From a virus (lineage: Duplodnaviria; Heunggongvirae; Uroviricota; Caudoviricetes), in the IMG/VR virus record IMGVR_UViG_2850756110_000009: a stretch of DNA of 29,734 bases; one strand, written 5' to 3'. How positions within the stretch are numbered: the stretch's first letter is position 1; every line of letters starts with the position of its first letter. A program made the translations under genes and the position numbers. Shown one piece after another: positions 22,843 to 25,576 of this stretch. The notes beneath the pieces were generated by a model that was not told the origin of the DNA, made no database searches, and saw only the letters and a list, made by a program, of their open reading frames with translations.

Positions 22843-23357
22843 CAGGTGTGGTGCGGTGATGTGACCTGTATCTGGACGGGTAAGCGCTGGGCGTACCTCG
22901 CCGTTGTTCTCGACCTGTTCGCAAGAAAACCAGTGGGCTGGGCCATGTCGTTCTCGCCGGACAGCAGGCTCACCATGAAAGCGCTGGAAATGGCATGGGA
23001 AACCCGTGGTAAGCCCGGCGGGGTGATGTTCCACAGCGATCAGGGCAGTCATTATACGAGCAGGCAGTTCCGGCAGTTATTGTGGCGATACCAGATCAGA
23101 CAGAGTATGAGCCGGCGCGGAAACTGCTGGGATAACAGCCCAATGGAACGCTTCTTCAGGAGTCTGAAGAACGAATGGATGCCGGTGGTGGGTTACGTAA
23201 GCTTCAGCGAGGCAGCTCACGCCATAACGGACTATATCGTTGGATATTACAGCGCACTAAGACCGCACGAATATAACGGTGGGTTACCCCCAAACGAATC
23301 GGAAAATCGATACTGGAAAAACTCTAACTCGGTGGCCAGTTTTTGTTGACCACTTCA
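22843..23357 (+). mobile_element. IS911 (IS3 family), 3' fragment of about 515 bp, truncated at its 5' side
   Basis: Identical to the 3' half of the complete copy from CAGGTGTGGTGCGGTGATGTG onward; ends with the IRR ...CCAGTTTTTGTTGACCACTTCA at 23357; carries the OrfB C-terminal half (22846-23349). Confidence 0.85.
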
Positions 23358-23366
23358 ATGGCGACA

Positions 23367-23582
23367 TTATTCACCTCTCGCAGCCTTACGCTTATCTTCT
23401 CTTATTTTGAAATACAGATTCGTCAGATAAGTCAGAAGCCCCAGAAGCAGACTTCCCAGCACACCAATCGCAGCCCACTGTGATGGACTGACCTGATCCA
23501 ACCACTGCAAAAACCAGTAGCCGGCACTGCCGGCGGAGGTGCCGTAGGCAATGCCCGTTGAAATTTTGTCCATGGATTTCAT
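23367..23582 (-). CDS. Class II holin/pinholin, phage 21 S-type (71 aa, dual-start MKSM)
   Basis: Translation [71 protein letters not shown] matches the S21 pinholin as I recall it; SD GGAGGTGA upstream; Met1 and Met4 starts present. Confidence 0.85.
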
Positions 23583-23742
23583 AGCCTCACCTCCGCAAAT
23601 AACGGATGGCGTAGTTTTACACTGAGAAATGAAAGGGATTTGAAAAGAAAAAAACGCAAAAGCGGGCGAAACGATATATACAGTAAGGAAAGCACTCTAT
23701 CCAACAAACCACCCACAGTTAATCGGAATAAAAGCAGAGTGC

Positions 23743-23815
23743 TTATGAATGATCGCACGCCCGAAGGTTAGTATTTCTGCACAGCAATTTTGCAAAAAAA
23801 GGCGATCATTCATAA
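23743..23815. repeat. Perfect 14-bp inverted repeat (TTATGAATGATCGC / GCGATCATTCATAA) with 45-bp spacer in the tRNA-holin intergenic region
   Basis: Arms at 23743-23756 and 23802-23815 are exact reverse complements; an adjacent 9-bp inverted repeat has arms at 23690-23698 and 23736-23744. Confidence 0.7.
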
Positions 23816-23874
23816 CTTAAACGTCTTTCAGTCACTCCGGGATTTCCCATCATCGCAGACTGAAAGACTCTGAC

Positions 23875-23949
23875 TGGAGCGGGCAGCGGGAATCGAACCC
23901 GCATCATCAGCTTGGAAGGCTGAGGTAATAGCCATTATACGATGCCCGC
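23875..23949 (-). tRNA. tRNA-Gly (anticodon UCC)
   Basis: 75-nt cloverleaf GCGGGCATCGTATAATGGCTATTACCTCAGCCTTCCAAGCTGATGATGCGGGTTCGATTCCCGCTGCCCGCTCCA, identical in form to E. coli glyT; anticodon loop CTTCCAA. Confidence 0.9.
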
Positions 23950-23952
23950 ATA

Positions 23953-24028
23953 TGGTGCCGACTACCGGAATCGAACTGGTGACCTACTGATTACAAGTCA
24001 GTTGCTCTGCCTGCTGAGCTAAGTCGGC
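23953..24028 (-). tRNA. tRNA-Thr (anticodon UGU)
   Basis: 76 nt; acceptor stem GCCGACT/AGTCGGC; anticodon arm ACTGA-CTTGTAA-TCAGT; T-loop TTCGATT; 3' CCA encoded. Confidence 0.85.
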
Positions 24029-24030
24029 GC

Positions 24031-24107
24031 TGGCCCACCACCGAGGACTCGAACCTCGCACCGTCAACTTAGAAGGTTGATGCTCTATCCGGATGAGCTA
24101 GTGGTGG
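24031..24107 (-). tRNA. tRNA-Arg (anticodon UCU)
   Basis: 77 nt; acceptor CCACCAC/GTGGTGG; anticodon arm TCAAC-CTTCTAA-GTTGA; T-arm CGAGG-TTCGAGT-CCTCG; CCA encoded. Confidence 0.8.
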
Positions 24108-24108
24108 T

Positions 24109-24185
24109 TGGTGGCCCTTGCTGGACTTGAACCAGCGACCTGGCGATTATGAGTCGCTCGCTCTGACCAACTGAGCTAAAGGGCC
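24109..24185 (-). tRNA. tRNA with CAU anticodon, ileX-like (probably tRNA-Ile2, lysidine-modified; tRNA-Met not excluded)
   Basis: 77 nt GGCCCTTTAGCTCAGTTGGTCAGAGCGAGCGACTCATAATCGCCAGGTCGCTGGTTCAAGTCCAGCAAGGGCCACCA, very close to E. coli ileX; anticodon loop CTCATAA. Confidence 0.75.
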
Positions 24186-24265
24186 GGAGGCAGAATAATA
24201 ACCATATGTCATCACATCTGCAAACTCATCTGACCACCAGCACGTTTAACGTCCTGTGCCGTTTT

Positions 24266-25165
24266 TCATTTCAGGTATAAAAAAACCCGCATAAAGCGGG
24301 CTCTTTCAAATGTCCATGTGAAGTGGTCAACAAAAACTGGCCACCGAGTTAGAGTTTTTCCAGTATCGATTTTCCGATTCGTTTGGGGTAACCCACCGTT
24401 ATATTCGTGCGGTCTTAGTGCGCTGTAATATCCAACGATATAGTCCGTTATGGCGTGAGCTGCCTCGCTGAAGCTTACGTAACCCACCACCGGCATCCAT
24501 TCGTTCTTCAGACTCCTGAAGAAGCGTTCCATTGGGCTGTTATCCCAGCAGTTTCCGCGCCGGCTCATACTCTGTCTGATCTGGTATCGCCACAATAACT
24601 GCCGGAACTGCCTGCTCGTATAATGACTGCCCTGATCGCTGTGGAACATCACCCCGCCGGGCTTACCACGGGTTTCCCATGCCATTTCCAGCGCTTTCAT
24701 GGTGAGCCTGCTGTCCGGCGAGAACGACATGGCCCAGCCCACTGGTTTTCTTGCGAACAGGTCGAGAACAACGGCGAGGTACGCCCAGCGCTTACCCGTC
24801 CAGATACAGGGCACATCACCGCACCACACCTGATTTGGCTCGGTCACGGCGAACTGCCTTTCAAGGTAGTTAGGGATAGCAACATGTTCATGACCACCAC
24901 GTTTATACCGGTGAGTCGGCTGCTGACAGCTGACCAGCCCCAGCTCTTTCATGAGCCTGCCAGCAAGCCAGCGTCCCATCTGGTAGCCTCTCCGGGTTGC
25001 CATTGTGGCGATGCTTCTTGCTCCGGCCGAACCATGGCTGATGCCATGTAGCTCAAGTACCTGACTGCGTAATACAGCCCGTCTGCCGTCTGGTTTTTCA
25101 GGACGGTTTTTCCAGTATCTGTAGCTGCTGCGATGAACCCCGAACACTTGGCAGAGTGTGACCAC
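24266..25165 (-). CDS. IS911 OrfB transposase frame, C-terminus frameshifted in this copy
   Basis: DDE transposase frame. Its end reads ...[13 protein letters not shown]..., whereas the truncated copy reads ...[25 protein letters not shown]. The difference is G4 (24385-24388) versus C5 (23287-23291) in the same homopolymer. Confidence 0.8.
24279..24302 (-). terminator. Intrinsic terminator on the minus strand, candidate lambdoid tR'
   Basis: Minus-strand hairpin AGCCCGC-TTTAT-GCGGGTT followed by a T7 run (+ strand A7 at 24279-24285), immediately upstream of the tRNA cluster in transcription order. Confidence 0.6.
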
Positions 25166-25576
25166 AGGATAATGCGCTCTGAGTTTCCCGATTATCGAGA
25201 ACTGTTCAGGGAGTCTGACATCAAGAGCGCGGTAGCCTTTTTTAATATTTCATTCTCCATTTCAATGCGTTGTAGCTTTTTCCTCAGCTTACGTATTTCG
25301 ATTTGTTCTGGTGTTATCGGAGAGGCTTTTGGTGTTTTGCCCTGACGCTCATCACGCAGTTGTTTGACCCATCTTGTCATTGTGGAAAGGCCAACATCCA
25401 TAGCTTTGGCGGCATCTGCCACCGTGTATTTCTGGTCAACAACCAGTTGAGCGGATTCGCGCTTAAACTCTGCGCTAAAATTTCTTTTTTTCATTGGAGC
25501 ACCTGTGTTGTTCTGAGGTGAGCATATCACCTCTGTTCAGGTGGCCAAATTCAGTGTGCCACTTCACTGATAAAAG
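24319..25576 (-). mobile_element. IS911 (IS3 family), complete copy
   Basis: IRL TGAAGTGGCACACTGAATTTGGCCACCTGAACAGAGGTGATATGC (reverse complement ending 25576) and IRR TGAAGTGGTCAACAAAAACTGGCCACCGAG starting 24319; flanking 3-bp sequences do not match, so no intact target duplication. Confidence 0.9.
25192..25494 (-). CDS. IS911 OrfA
   Basis: [53 protein letters not shown]... is the IS911 OrfA sequence; the track ORF starts 12 codons upstream at 25530. Confidence 0.9.

Follow-up and report, generated by a model that had tools for sequence, protein, structure and literature searches.

IS911 copies without target duplications in a scrambled ipaH-carrying prophage of Shigella

The window, that is, the whole stretch of 29,734 nucleotides that was analysed, appears to be what is left, in scrambled form, of a lambdoid myovirus prophage that carries ipaH and sits between ybhA and pgl in a host from the boydii/dysenteriae group of Shigella. 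Very probably, this ipaH prophage took its present form through an inversion between two IS911 copies (X and Y), through losses of phage DNA and through an inversion between two ISEc22 copies. Loci were compared by pairwise alignments and by exact junction patterns, and in this way we directly observed every junction sequence, the two parental and the two recombinant configurations, and the sizes of the deletions. The features on which the argument rests are collected in Table 1.

Table 1. Features of the window that bear on its rearrangement (positions in the window; L002, intact reference locus)
Feature	Position	Strand	Evidence or remark
ISEc22 copy a, other inversion partner	559..2999	+	right flank gattttgc = left flank of copy c
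First neck gene, now a pseudogene	22494..22838	-	alignment with L002 22259-22606
Junction filler 'tacc'	22839..22842	.	junction ggtaggctgaaatgg common to 720-bp and 515-bp remnant loci
IS911 3' remnant, 515 bp (nt 735-1249), 3' part of orfB and intact IRR	22843..23357	+	
First 10 nt of the endolysin gene (ATGTCGCCAT)	23358..23367	-	L002 homology resumes at 32002, 10 nt inside rrrD (31514-32011)
Intact class II (phage-21-type) holin, 71 aa	23367..23582	-	ORF; annotated holin in phages; PF04971
Four phage tRNA genes: Gly(tcc), Thr(tgt), Arg(tct), Met/Ile2(cat)	23875..24185	-	ARAGORN
Late-operon intrinsic terminator, GC-rich hairpin and U7 tail	24278..24308	-	fold -18.7 kcal/mol, z = -5.1
Full IS911, 1248 bp, recombinant copy	24319..25566	-	inverted repeats, annotation, junction survey
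Internal integrase fragment, about codons 61-172 of 373	25567..25904	-	99.7% to int of the ybhA-pgl prophage, FDAARGOS_944
IS1 terminal fragment, 127 bp	25905..26031	.	genuine IS1 end abuts int; other side cut by ISEc22
ISEc22 (IS66 family) copy c, inversion partner	26032..28472	-	

The full-length IS911 and its junctions

The complete element has the properties expected of IS911. Its 99.5-99.8% matches carry the RefSeq/PGAP label 'IS3-like element IS911 family transposase', its length is close to 1250 bp, and its terminal inverted repeats begin with 5'-TGAAGTGG. We find orfA and orfB in the -1 frame, with a DDE transposase (orfA of 100 aa, PF01527; orfB with PF00665 rve), and an A6G slippery site, TTAAAAAAGG, at alignment columns ~322-331. 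The ends of this 1248-bp copy read TGAAGTGGCACACTGAATTTGGCC (IRL) and TGAAGTGGTCAACAAAAACTGGCC (IRR), and sister copies are 1249 bp long. Compared with six other copies, it differs by one SNP and has lost 1 nt from a C-run (alignment column 1179); because of this loss its orfB is frameshifted at the 3' end and reads through IRR.

A first-pass annotation had placed the element at 24319-25576. Its start, which is the IRR end, stands at 24319; the IRL end (...GTGTGCCACTTCA) lies at 25566, and the extra 10 nt (ctgataaaag) are integrase sequence, equal to positions 12001-12010 of locus L005. As that annotation described, this copy and the 515-bp truncated one bracket the segment with the holin and the tRNAs, both IRR ends facing the 961 bp (23358-24318) that also hold the terminator. 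Both copies are 99-100% identical over their shared part and form the inverted repeats 22835-23293/24382-24840 and 23288-23357/24319-24388. Equally, there is no 3-bp direct repeat around either IS911 in the window: on the plus strand the full copy is flanked by atg (24316-24318) and ctg (25567-25569), and the IRR of the truncated copy by atg (23358-23360).

IS copies that lack a target duplication are usually explained either by recombination between IS copies or by an adjacent deletion (PMC11708052), and the rates of IS-mediated rearrangement are high in Shigella genomes (PMC8072062). The first-pass annotation had opted for the deletion and took the integrase piece for an N-terminal fragment that had been joined directly to the late terminator. 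This piece turns out to be internal. Moreover, it lies on the strand of the late genes in the window, whereas the integrase of the intact prophage at ybhA-pgl lies on the opposite strand. Because the integrase strand is reversed relative to the late genes, a simple deletion from integrase to terminator is impossible, and an inversion is required.

Among the relatives we found four kinds of junction. Parental junction X is one IS911 in int, with the target duplication CAG on both sides (L037 and L038; in CP162066.1 it is a single copy). Parental junction Y reads O'-CTG-IS911-CAT-terminator and is collinear with the tRNAs, the holin, the IS911 remnant and the neck genes (L053, which is CP026842.1). 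Recombinant R1 (int'-CAG-IS911-CAT-terminator) occurs in the window, in L006 and in L021-L030, and recombinant R2 (O'-CTG-IS911-CAG-int 3' part-ybhA) in over 20 loci, S. boydii CDC 3083-94, L022 and L044 among them. The IRL side of the full copy is thus that of the insertion in int, and its IRR side that of the copy at the terminator. The two CAG halves are found on R1 and R2, and both the parental and the recombinant junction pairs exist among relatives, as expected for an inversion by homologous recombination. A matching 3-bp duplication had been named beforehand as a finding that would speak against the deletion; it does exist (CAG), on another IS911 copy and not at some other choice of boundaries.

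It was in sister genomes, outside the 29.7 kb of the window itself, that we saw the reciprocal copy and the two parental states. Of the window-type genomes, only UYIT01 yielded the reciprocal copy, and the best match, CP026805.1, did not; in UYIT01, the R2 locus L044 and the window-type locus L021 share contig UYIT01000003.1 and are ~120 kb apart. We considered the partial protein P0001 as a sign that the reciprocal copy shares the orfB frameshift, and rejected it, as the contig simply starts 61 nt inside IS911.

We propose the following course of events. X would have arisen in int by an ordinary IS911 insertion with the 3-bp duplication CAG, and another ordinary IS911 insertion would have taken place beside the late terminator. 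X and Y would have been in inverted orientation, and homologous recombination between them would have inverted the int'-immunity-O' block and created R1 and R2. The recombination of X and Y accounts both for the window copy without a direct repeat and for the integrase on the late-gene strand; the missing 3-bp duplication at the full copy is secondary. We were not able to place the crossover site, as there are too few SNPs within the IS911 copies and alignment column 105 goes against a simple pattern of X to the left and Y to the right. In other lineages (L035-L038) the IRL junction lies 107 bp further towards YdaT, which points to additional events, outside the ordering of this model.

The reciprocal recombinant holds the immunity genes, the 3' part of the integrase gene and ybhA. 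In CP026807.1 the immunity region is found 7 kb away, and the R2-R1 block is inverted relative to the canonical prophage (FDAARGOS_944). The claim that the whole immunity and replication region is gone therefore needs to be narrowed: the immunity module and the 3' part of the integrase gene persist elsewhere in the genome, and only about 8.56 kb, from the replication genes to Q, are truly missing. Measured from the uninterrupted target sites in L014, this gap is 8,564 bp and spans codon 18 of an O-like replication gene through the Q-like antiterminator. Y may have replaced the 8,564 bp via recombination between two direct IS911 copies or via an IS-adjacent deletion; in L053 it has intact IS ends and the flanks CTG and CAT, which are equally compatible with both. 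An IS911 flanked by a target duplication at the Q-terminator site, where the IRL junction would read ...GCAGACAT joined to TGAAGTGGCAC, or in the O-like gene, where the IRR junction would read CCACTTCA joined to CTGATAATGCC, was not found in the 43-53 loci searched.

The competing explanation invokes transposase-mediated adjacent deletions by both IS911 copies: one of them would have taken away the whole early region, between int and the late terminator, and the other would have reached from the holin to the neck genes. Neither IS911 has a target duplication in the window, which also lacks the early, lysis and head genes, and an IS911-associated loss of 8.56 kb did happen beside the terminator. 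For the full copy, however, the survey of the four junctions already contradicts this explanation: a deletion product would have the integrase fragment on the opposite strand, and the other half of the duplication survives on a second IS911 together with the immunity genes. At the truncated copy, the deletion does not end at the tip of the element and has a two-step history (see below). We therefore consider adjacent deletion by both copies to be improbable.

Less credible still is a one-step intramolecular transposition, in which the IS911 in int, with no prior second copy, would have targeted the terminator region; the element would have left an inverted duplicate of itself there and inverted the DNA in between. 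Such an event predicts the identical pair of recombinant junctions and the same split duplication. On the other hand, an un-recombined terminator copy exists (L053), whose IRR-CAT junction is identical and whose O' junction is that of the reciprocal copy, and the copy in int also exists alone (L038). Furthermore, IS911 reportedly transposes by copy-out/paste-in through a circle, a mode that normally yields no replicative inversions. We regard the one-step event as very improbable and retain the recombination between X and Y.

The truncated IS911 and the loss of head and lysis genes

The truncated IS911, which terminates in IRR ...GTTGACCACTTCA, stands where the lysis genes (except the holin) and the terminase, portal and capsid genes were lost, as the first-pass annotation had said. 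The deletion was sized, as it had also proposed, against an intact prophage, that of EIEC CFSAN029787. The loss amounts to 9,397 bp and ten genes, from endolysin to major capsid (endolysin, Rz, a hypothetical gene, TerS, TerL, portal, head morphogenesis, a scaffold-like gene, cement protein and major capsid), and its break points are window 22838 = L002 22604 and window 23358 = L002 32002. In the first neck gene, the A and T of the start codon were lost at the deletion junction, and there is a 1-nt frameshift in a C-run.

This loss had been read as a classical IS-adjacent deletion. A transposase-mediated deletion of that kind starts exactly at an intact IS terminus; the 9.4-kb loss ends inside IS911, at nt 530 in an older form and at nt 735 in the window, and not at the IRL tip. 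The remnants with one common junction form a series, 720 bp long in seven loci and 515 bp long in three. The filler 'tacc' consists of TA and CC, the CC being IS911 nt 530-531 left from the older 720-bp remnant. The 10 nt of the endolysin gene are the original insertion site of the IS911 that now adjoins them as a remnant.

IS911 would thus have entered the endolysin gene, 10 nt from its start, as an ordinary insertion. It would then have lost its 5' 529 nt together with the 9,397 bp of phage DNA in an illegitimate deletion at an 8-nt microhomology (TCAGCCAT), and a second deletion, of 203 bp within the remnant, would have turned the 720-bp form into the 515-bp form. Because the junction microhomology holds 4 extra nt, we infer the mechanism of this loss, as we infer that of the 8.56-kb loss and the order of some of the steps. 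Since the end point lies inside IS911, at a microhomology, the element appears as the victim and not as the agent of the head and lysis deletion.

We were not able to find a simple IS911 insertion in the endolysin gene in the 43-53 loci searched. The full-length IS911 beside the holin in L029 was considered as the ancestral insertion and rejected: it lies inside a fragment of another IS911, with IS2 as its neighbour, and thus represents a further rearrangement.

The tRNA island and the later insertions

The island between the two IS911 copies is ordered and oriented as in the phage, the terminator being followed by the tRNAs and the holin and, beyond them, by neck and tail, and its borders are the phage's own Q-terminator site and codon 4 of the endolysin gene. 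In L007 and L014, the Q-like gene is followed by the same terminator; in the window, a simple terminator scan gave no late terminator and direct folding did. The exact holin protein is indexed in 742 collection blocks. The four tRNAs are intact in all 13 of the rearranged sister loci scanned, even in the presence of a truncated holin. An inversion of the holin-tRNA segment between the two IS911 copies of the window was also considered and was rejected, because in the window, just as in the intact phage, this segment runs collinear with the neck and tail genes.

With its 961 bp of cargo between two IS911 copies, the segment might be taken for a composite mobile unit that transposed into a remnant of tail genes; this is extremely improbable given its native order, orientation and borders, the missing IRL of one copy and the fact that both copies point their IRR inwards. 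Many identical IS copies lie close together in this region, which would favour an assembly artefact with collapsed or mis-joined repeats, but the junctions recur in more than 10 independent complete or long-read assemblies and at the contig ends of many drafts, and we attach next to no weight to it.

It is conceivable, if rather unlikely, that the tRNA island was kept between two large losses by selection on its four tRNAs. They would read the rare codons AGA, AUA, ACA and GGA, might serve AT-rich virulence genes (ipaH, pINV) and, Q and pR' having been lost, might owe their transcription to a promoter-like site of their own (24224-24195, minus strand). The evidence for this reading is one of conservation.

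The integrase fragment is cut short by IS1, and a full IS1 is present at the matching integrase position in L038. The window has three copies of ISEc22, each 2441 bp long and 99.8% identical to the annotated element, with tnpA-tnpB-tnpC, GTAAGCG termini and the 8-bp target duplication. Copy b has the perfect duplication gctgatgc. The flanks of copies a and c are swapped within the window (8-bp gattttgc), that is, the halves of the duplication have been exchanged as expected for an inversion, and the pre-inversion state zitB-ISEc22-IS1'-int' is present in CP026819.1. At a later stage, then, IS1 would have inserted into int and ISEc22 would have cut IS1; an inversion between two ISEc22 copies would have turned the entire block round, which brought the tail-fibre end next to zitB and the integrase end next to ipaH-pgl.

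Relatives of the prophage and comparison with known systems

S. dysenteriae 2017C-4522 (CP026805.1) matches the window gene for gene. The intact reference is EIEC CFSAN029787 (O96:H19), whose neck and tail genes are 99.7% identical and which has the full head/lysis block and ipaH. Its gene order, int ... cI/cro ... replication ... Q-tRNAs-holin-lysis-terminase-head-neck-sheath-tail-fibre-ipaH, is the one expected of a lambdoid ipaH prophage with an E217-type contractile tail; E217_gp27/28/31/32 are the Pfam matches on the neck, sheath and tube genes. The only prophage genes left in the window are the tRNAs, the holin, neck, tail and ipaH, the last truncated to its NEL domain. The tail module and ipaH remain, in line with the earlier description of a tail-only remnant plus cargo. 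The prophage is defective: host-cell lysis, DNA packaging and excision are all beyond its capacity.

Searches of phage databases gave no deposited phage, SfV included, that matched the neck genes at the DNA level, and none that matched the integrase fragment; for this reason, the designation 'SfV-like' is unsupported at the DNA level. Useful references are E. coli/EIEC chromosomes and Shigella assemblies rather than phages.

The case is one of the ordinary, already known IS-driven scrambling of Shigella genomes and has little importance beyond annotation. It is a clean and fully documented example of how to read IS copies without target duplications, and the lesson is that a deletion should be called only after other IS copies have been searched for the missing half of the duplication. 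In addition, these junctions (X, Y, R1, R2, the 720-bp versus the 515-bp remnant and the ISEc22 flip) together provide ordered structural markers for lineages of the boydii/dysenteriae clade.

Compared with the homologous recombination between IS copies that is known from Shigella, we see the same near-identical inverted IS copies, split halves of the target duplication, an inverted block and parental as well as recombinant states in related strains. This holds for IS911 (X and Y) and for ISEc22 (a and c). Nothing essential differs, and the inversions are layered with deletions and with nested IS1 and ISEc22 insertions. With the classical IS-adjacent deletion, the window shares the loss of flanking DNA beside an IS and the missing target duplication; unlike it, the head and lysis loss ends 529-734 nt inside IS911, at a microhomology. 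Such a deletion is a possible origin of the O'-IS911-terminator copy (Y).

The order Q-terminator-tRNAs-holin and the rare-codon anticodons (UCU Arg, CAU Ile2/Met) are those of the tRNA clusters between Q and the lysis genes of lambdoid phages (Stx phages, relatives of phage 21), whereas the cluster in the window is an island that has lost both of its neighbours. Finally, the ipaH genes of Shigella are surrounded by prophages and pseudogenes (PMC9046306), and as in the chromosomal ipaH remnants of Shigella and EIEC ('ipaH islands'), ipaH is convergent with the tail-fibre end of a lambdoid prophage. EIEC CFSAN029787 has the intact ipaH counterpart, while the copy in the window is IS-riddled and defective; unlike the EIEC copy, which lies in the yfaT region, the prophage of the window is found at ybhA-pgl and has another integrase.

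Layout of the prophage remnant

The 29.7-kb window is a prophage remnant full of insertion sequences (see the table). Its pattern of called genes (fragments of 68, 110/84, 219/128 and 288 aa and a read-through orfB) is that of CP026805.1 (our locus L026), which a published table gives as Shigella dysenteriae 2017C-4522 (PMC9046306 supplement).

Elements and genes of the window
Feature	Position	Strand	Remark
zitB	1-525	-	frameshifted
ISEc22 copy a	559-2999	+	
tail-fibre, baseplate, tape-measure, tube genes	about 3000-17790	-	
IS2-like element	about 7090-8400		inside tail gene block
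IS1	about 15714-16481		inside tail gene block
ISEc22 copy b	17794-20234	-	within sheath gene
neck genes	20235-22838	-	
IS911 remnant	22843-23357	+	
holin	23367-23582	-	
tRNA Gly, Thr, Arg, Met/Ile2	23875-24185	-	
terminator	24278-24308	-	strong hairpin and U7 tail on folding
full IS911	24319-25566	-	
integrase fragment	25567-25904	-	
IS1 end fragment	25905-26031		
ISEc22 copy c	26032-28472	-	
DUF4376 gene fragment	between ISEc22 copy c and ipaH		half at 28500-28688 (+)
ipaH	28868-29734	-	NEL domain only

Several genes are broken. The reading frame of zitB is lost after about residue 160 (…AALHVLG), and 33 bp separate its start codon from ISEc22 copy a upstream. Against the intact EIEC prophage, the first neck gene is a 68-aa stub, 110 and 84 aa replace 194 aa, and the C-terminal part of the sheath is found as pieces of 219 and 128 aa (among the neck and sheath genes at 21456-22039, 22494-22838 and 16652-17789). 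The ipaH reading frame holds the 288-aa NEL (E3 ligase) part alone, as it does in CP026805.1 (L026 6185-7051). Since UYIT01, the other window-type genome, has a 608-aa gene at this position (L021 5225-7051), the ipaH cargo gene itself is disrupted in the window strain.

The four phage tRNA genes survive intact in each of the 13 rearranged Shigella loci scanned (L021-L030, L035-L037), including those in which the holin is shortened to 63 aa. The first tRNA is closely preceded by a sigma-70-like site (TTTGCA-18-TATTAT, 24224-24195, minus strand). That selection has kept these four rare-codon tRNAs is a less likely reading; the loci show their conservation, which does not speak for a function.

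The full IS911 copy and the fate of the immunity region

The first-pass annotation had read both IS911 copies as scars of adjacent deletions. Both copies are indeed present, their IRR (right) ends point inward, and the 3-bp flanks (atg and ctg for the full copy, atg for the remnant) form no direct repeat. Two details had to be corrected: the full copy ends at 25566 and not at 25576, the following 10 nt being integrase sequence, and the integrase piece is not N-terminal but internal (about codons 61-172 of 373), cut on its other side by an IS1 end. IS911 is a member of the IS3 family with a 3-bp target-site duplication, and ISEc22 of the IS66 family with an 8-bp one.

The integrase fragment is 99.7% identical to int of the ybhA-pgl prophage in FDAARGOS_944, where int lies on the strand opposite the late genes with its 3' end beside ybhA; it is likewise opposite in CFSAN029787. 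The window has int on the strand of the late genes, so that deletion alone cannot account for the junction of int with the terminator. Using the integrase 3' part as query, we found partial Shigella proteins that start within IS911, on contigs reading IS911-IRR, CAGACATTTTT, the int 3' part, ybhA, mod and gal. The flank at the IRL (left) end in the window is TTATCAG, and this CAG is present only once in uninterrupted int.

Complete genomes with every junction state were found by exact-protein look-ups, and the states were tabulated by pattern searches in 53 fetched loci. State X, with one IS911 inserted in int between two copies of CAG, occurs in L037 and L038 (CP162066.1). State Y, again with a single IS911 but flanked by O'-CTG at IRL and by CAT-terminator at IRR, occurs in CP026842.1 (L053), collinear with the tRNAs, holin, IS911 remnant and neck. 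Reciprocal recombination of X and Y would invert the block between them and give two recombinant copies: R1 (int'-CAG, IS911, CAT-terminator), which is seen in the window, L006 and L021-L030, and R2 (O'-CTG, IS911, CAG-int 3' part), seen in more than 20 loci, S. boydii CDC 3083-94 among them. In CP026807.1, R2 and R1 are separated by 7 kb and flank a block O'-YdaT-cI-like-DUF1391-Rha-...-int' that is inverted relative to the canonical prophage. From these four states and the inverted block it follows that the joining of int' to the terminator is the product of reciprocal recombination between two inverted IS911 copies.

Rather than being deleted, the immunity module has been relocated. The whole region had been taken as gone, while its genes lie between R2 and R1 in CP026807.1 and with R2 in the window-type genome UYIT01000003.1, where a single contig has R2 at about 10 kb, next to YdaT, the cI-like repressor, DUF1391, the integrase 3' part, ybhA and modCBA, and R1 at about 137 kb. 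The full IS911 is an inversion break point and not a deletion scar, and it also bears one edge of an older 8.56-kb loss.

Compared with six other copies, the full IS911 differs by one SNP and by a private deletion of 1 nt, C5 to C4 close to the 3' end of orfB; the C4 allele is also found in L026 and L027. Because of this deletion orfB continues across IRR as far as the terminator region, which has probably crippled the copy.

IS911 is also seen near the holin elsewhere. An unrelated lambdoid prophage, found in EIEC-like E. coli, has it about 60 bp downstream of holin, at an identical site in two strains (E. coli O121 201805972, L016 8267-9515; VL7S7, L017 7001-8249). IRR adjoins the site in one strain and IRL in the other, and on the far side in VL7S7 early genes beside int follow. 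The two represent an independent inversion between IS911 copies at a site near the holin. In CP026828.1 (L029 12561-13955) a full-length IS911 beside holin has its IRL inserted in an oppositely oriented 140-bp IS911 fragment, itself interrupted by IS2, after which come inverted baseplate genes; one IS911 is nested in another.

Losses at the terminator and of the head and lysis genes

The DNA replaced by Y extends from codon 18 of the O-like replication gene to the base before CAT at the terminator. In L014 both sites are uninterrupted and enclose 8,564 bp with replication genes, several small genes, hok and the DUF1367, YbcO and DUF1133 (Q-like) genes; the IRR-CAT junction of the window is the terminator-side edge of this loss. 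Y may have come from an IS-adjacent deletion or from recombination of two direct IS911 copies, and no intermediate was found among the fetched loci. The IRL junction of a different lineage (L035-L038) is shifted by 107 bp towards YdaT and abuts the YdaT-O intergenic region, which suggests nested losses at this end; the terminator-side IS911 there carries an insertion of about 776 bp, the size of IS1 (e.g. L037 2991-5016).

The neck genes are found at 99.4-99.7% identity in eight EIEC-type E. coli genomes. In CFSAN029787 they are part of a complete ipaH prophage (L002) with the order immunity, replication, Q-like gene, four tRNAs, holin, endolysin, Rz, TerS, TerL, portal, head genes, neck, sheath, tail, fibres, ipaH. 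L002 and the window are homologous up to window position 22838 (L002 22604, the G in the ATG of the first neck gene) and again from 23358 (L002 32002, 10 nt into the endolysin gene). The loss of head and lysis genes proposed at the truncated IS911 is thereby borne out: 9,397 bp with ten genes are missing.

At endolysin codon 4, the remnant's IRR forms a true insertion junction. The neck-side junction, on the other hand, falls inside IS911, where TCAGCCAT is found on both partners (IS911 nt 526-533; the phage copy overlaps the neck gene's start codon), and an adjacent deletion made by the transposase was rejected on these grounds. The sequences point to an illegitimate deletion that was associated with microhomology and imprecise by 4 nt. 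It would have left the 720-bp remnant of seven sister loci, joined ...CCATTTCAGCC-TA-CCATGGTTCGG... Since the 515-bp remnant of the window and three loci (covering both window-type genomes) has the identical neck-side junction, it is the product of a later deletion of 203 bp (IS911 nt 532-734). In sum, the first-pass annotation was right about the structure and the head and lysis loss, and wrong about the origin of the full copy.

The ISEc22 inversion and comparison with known systems

ISEc22 is 2441 bp long with GTAAGCG ends. Copy b, with a perfect 8-bp duplication gctgatgc (17786-17793, 20235-20242), has simply inserted into the gene of the tail sheath (DUF3383/E217_gp31). Copies a and c share gattttgc as right and left flank, respectively, and divide a DUF4376 tail-fibre-region gene into opposed halves (2996-3415, minus; 28500-28688, plus), from which an inversion of about 23 kb between them follows. 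It moved ipaH off the fibre genes, with which it is convergent in the intact relative CFSAN029787, to the int end of the window and put the fibre end beside zitB. The state before inversion is found in CP026819.1 (tolB-pal-nadA-pnuC-zitB, ISEc22, IS1'-int'-IS911-terminator), while window-type genomes read ybhD-pgl-ipaH-DUF4376', ISEc22, IS1'-int'. On the int side, the 127-bp fragment of IS1 ends in a true IS1 terminus; it is cut by ISEc22, whose left side (zitB upstream, acttaact) is without a matching duplication.

All components are already known: IS911, ISEc22, IS1, IS2 and a lambdoid ipaH prophage with an E217-type tail. IS copies without target-site duplications have been treated before (PMC11708052), and ipaH genes sit among prophage debris (PMC9046306). 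The processes seen here, IS expansion, IS-IS recombination giving inversions and deletions, and prophage decay, are those already described in Shigella (PMC8072062).
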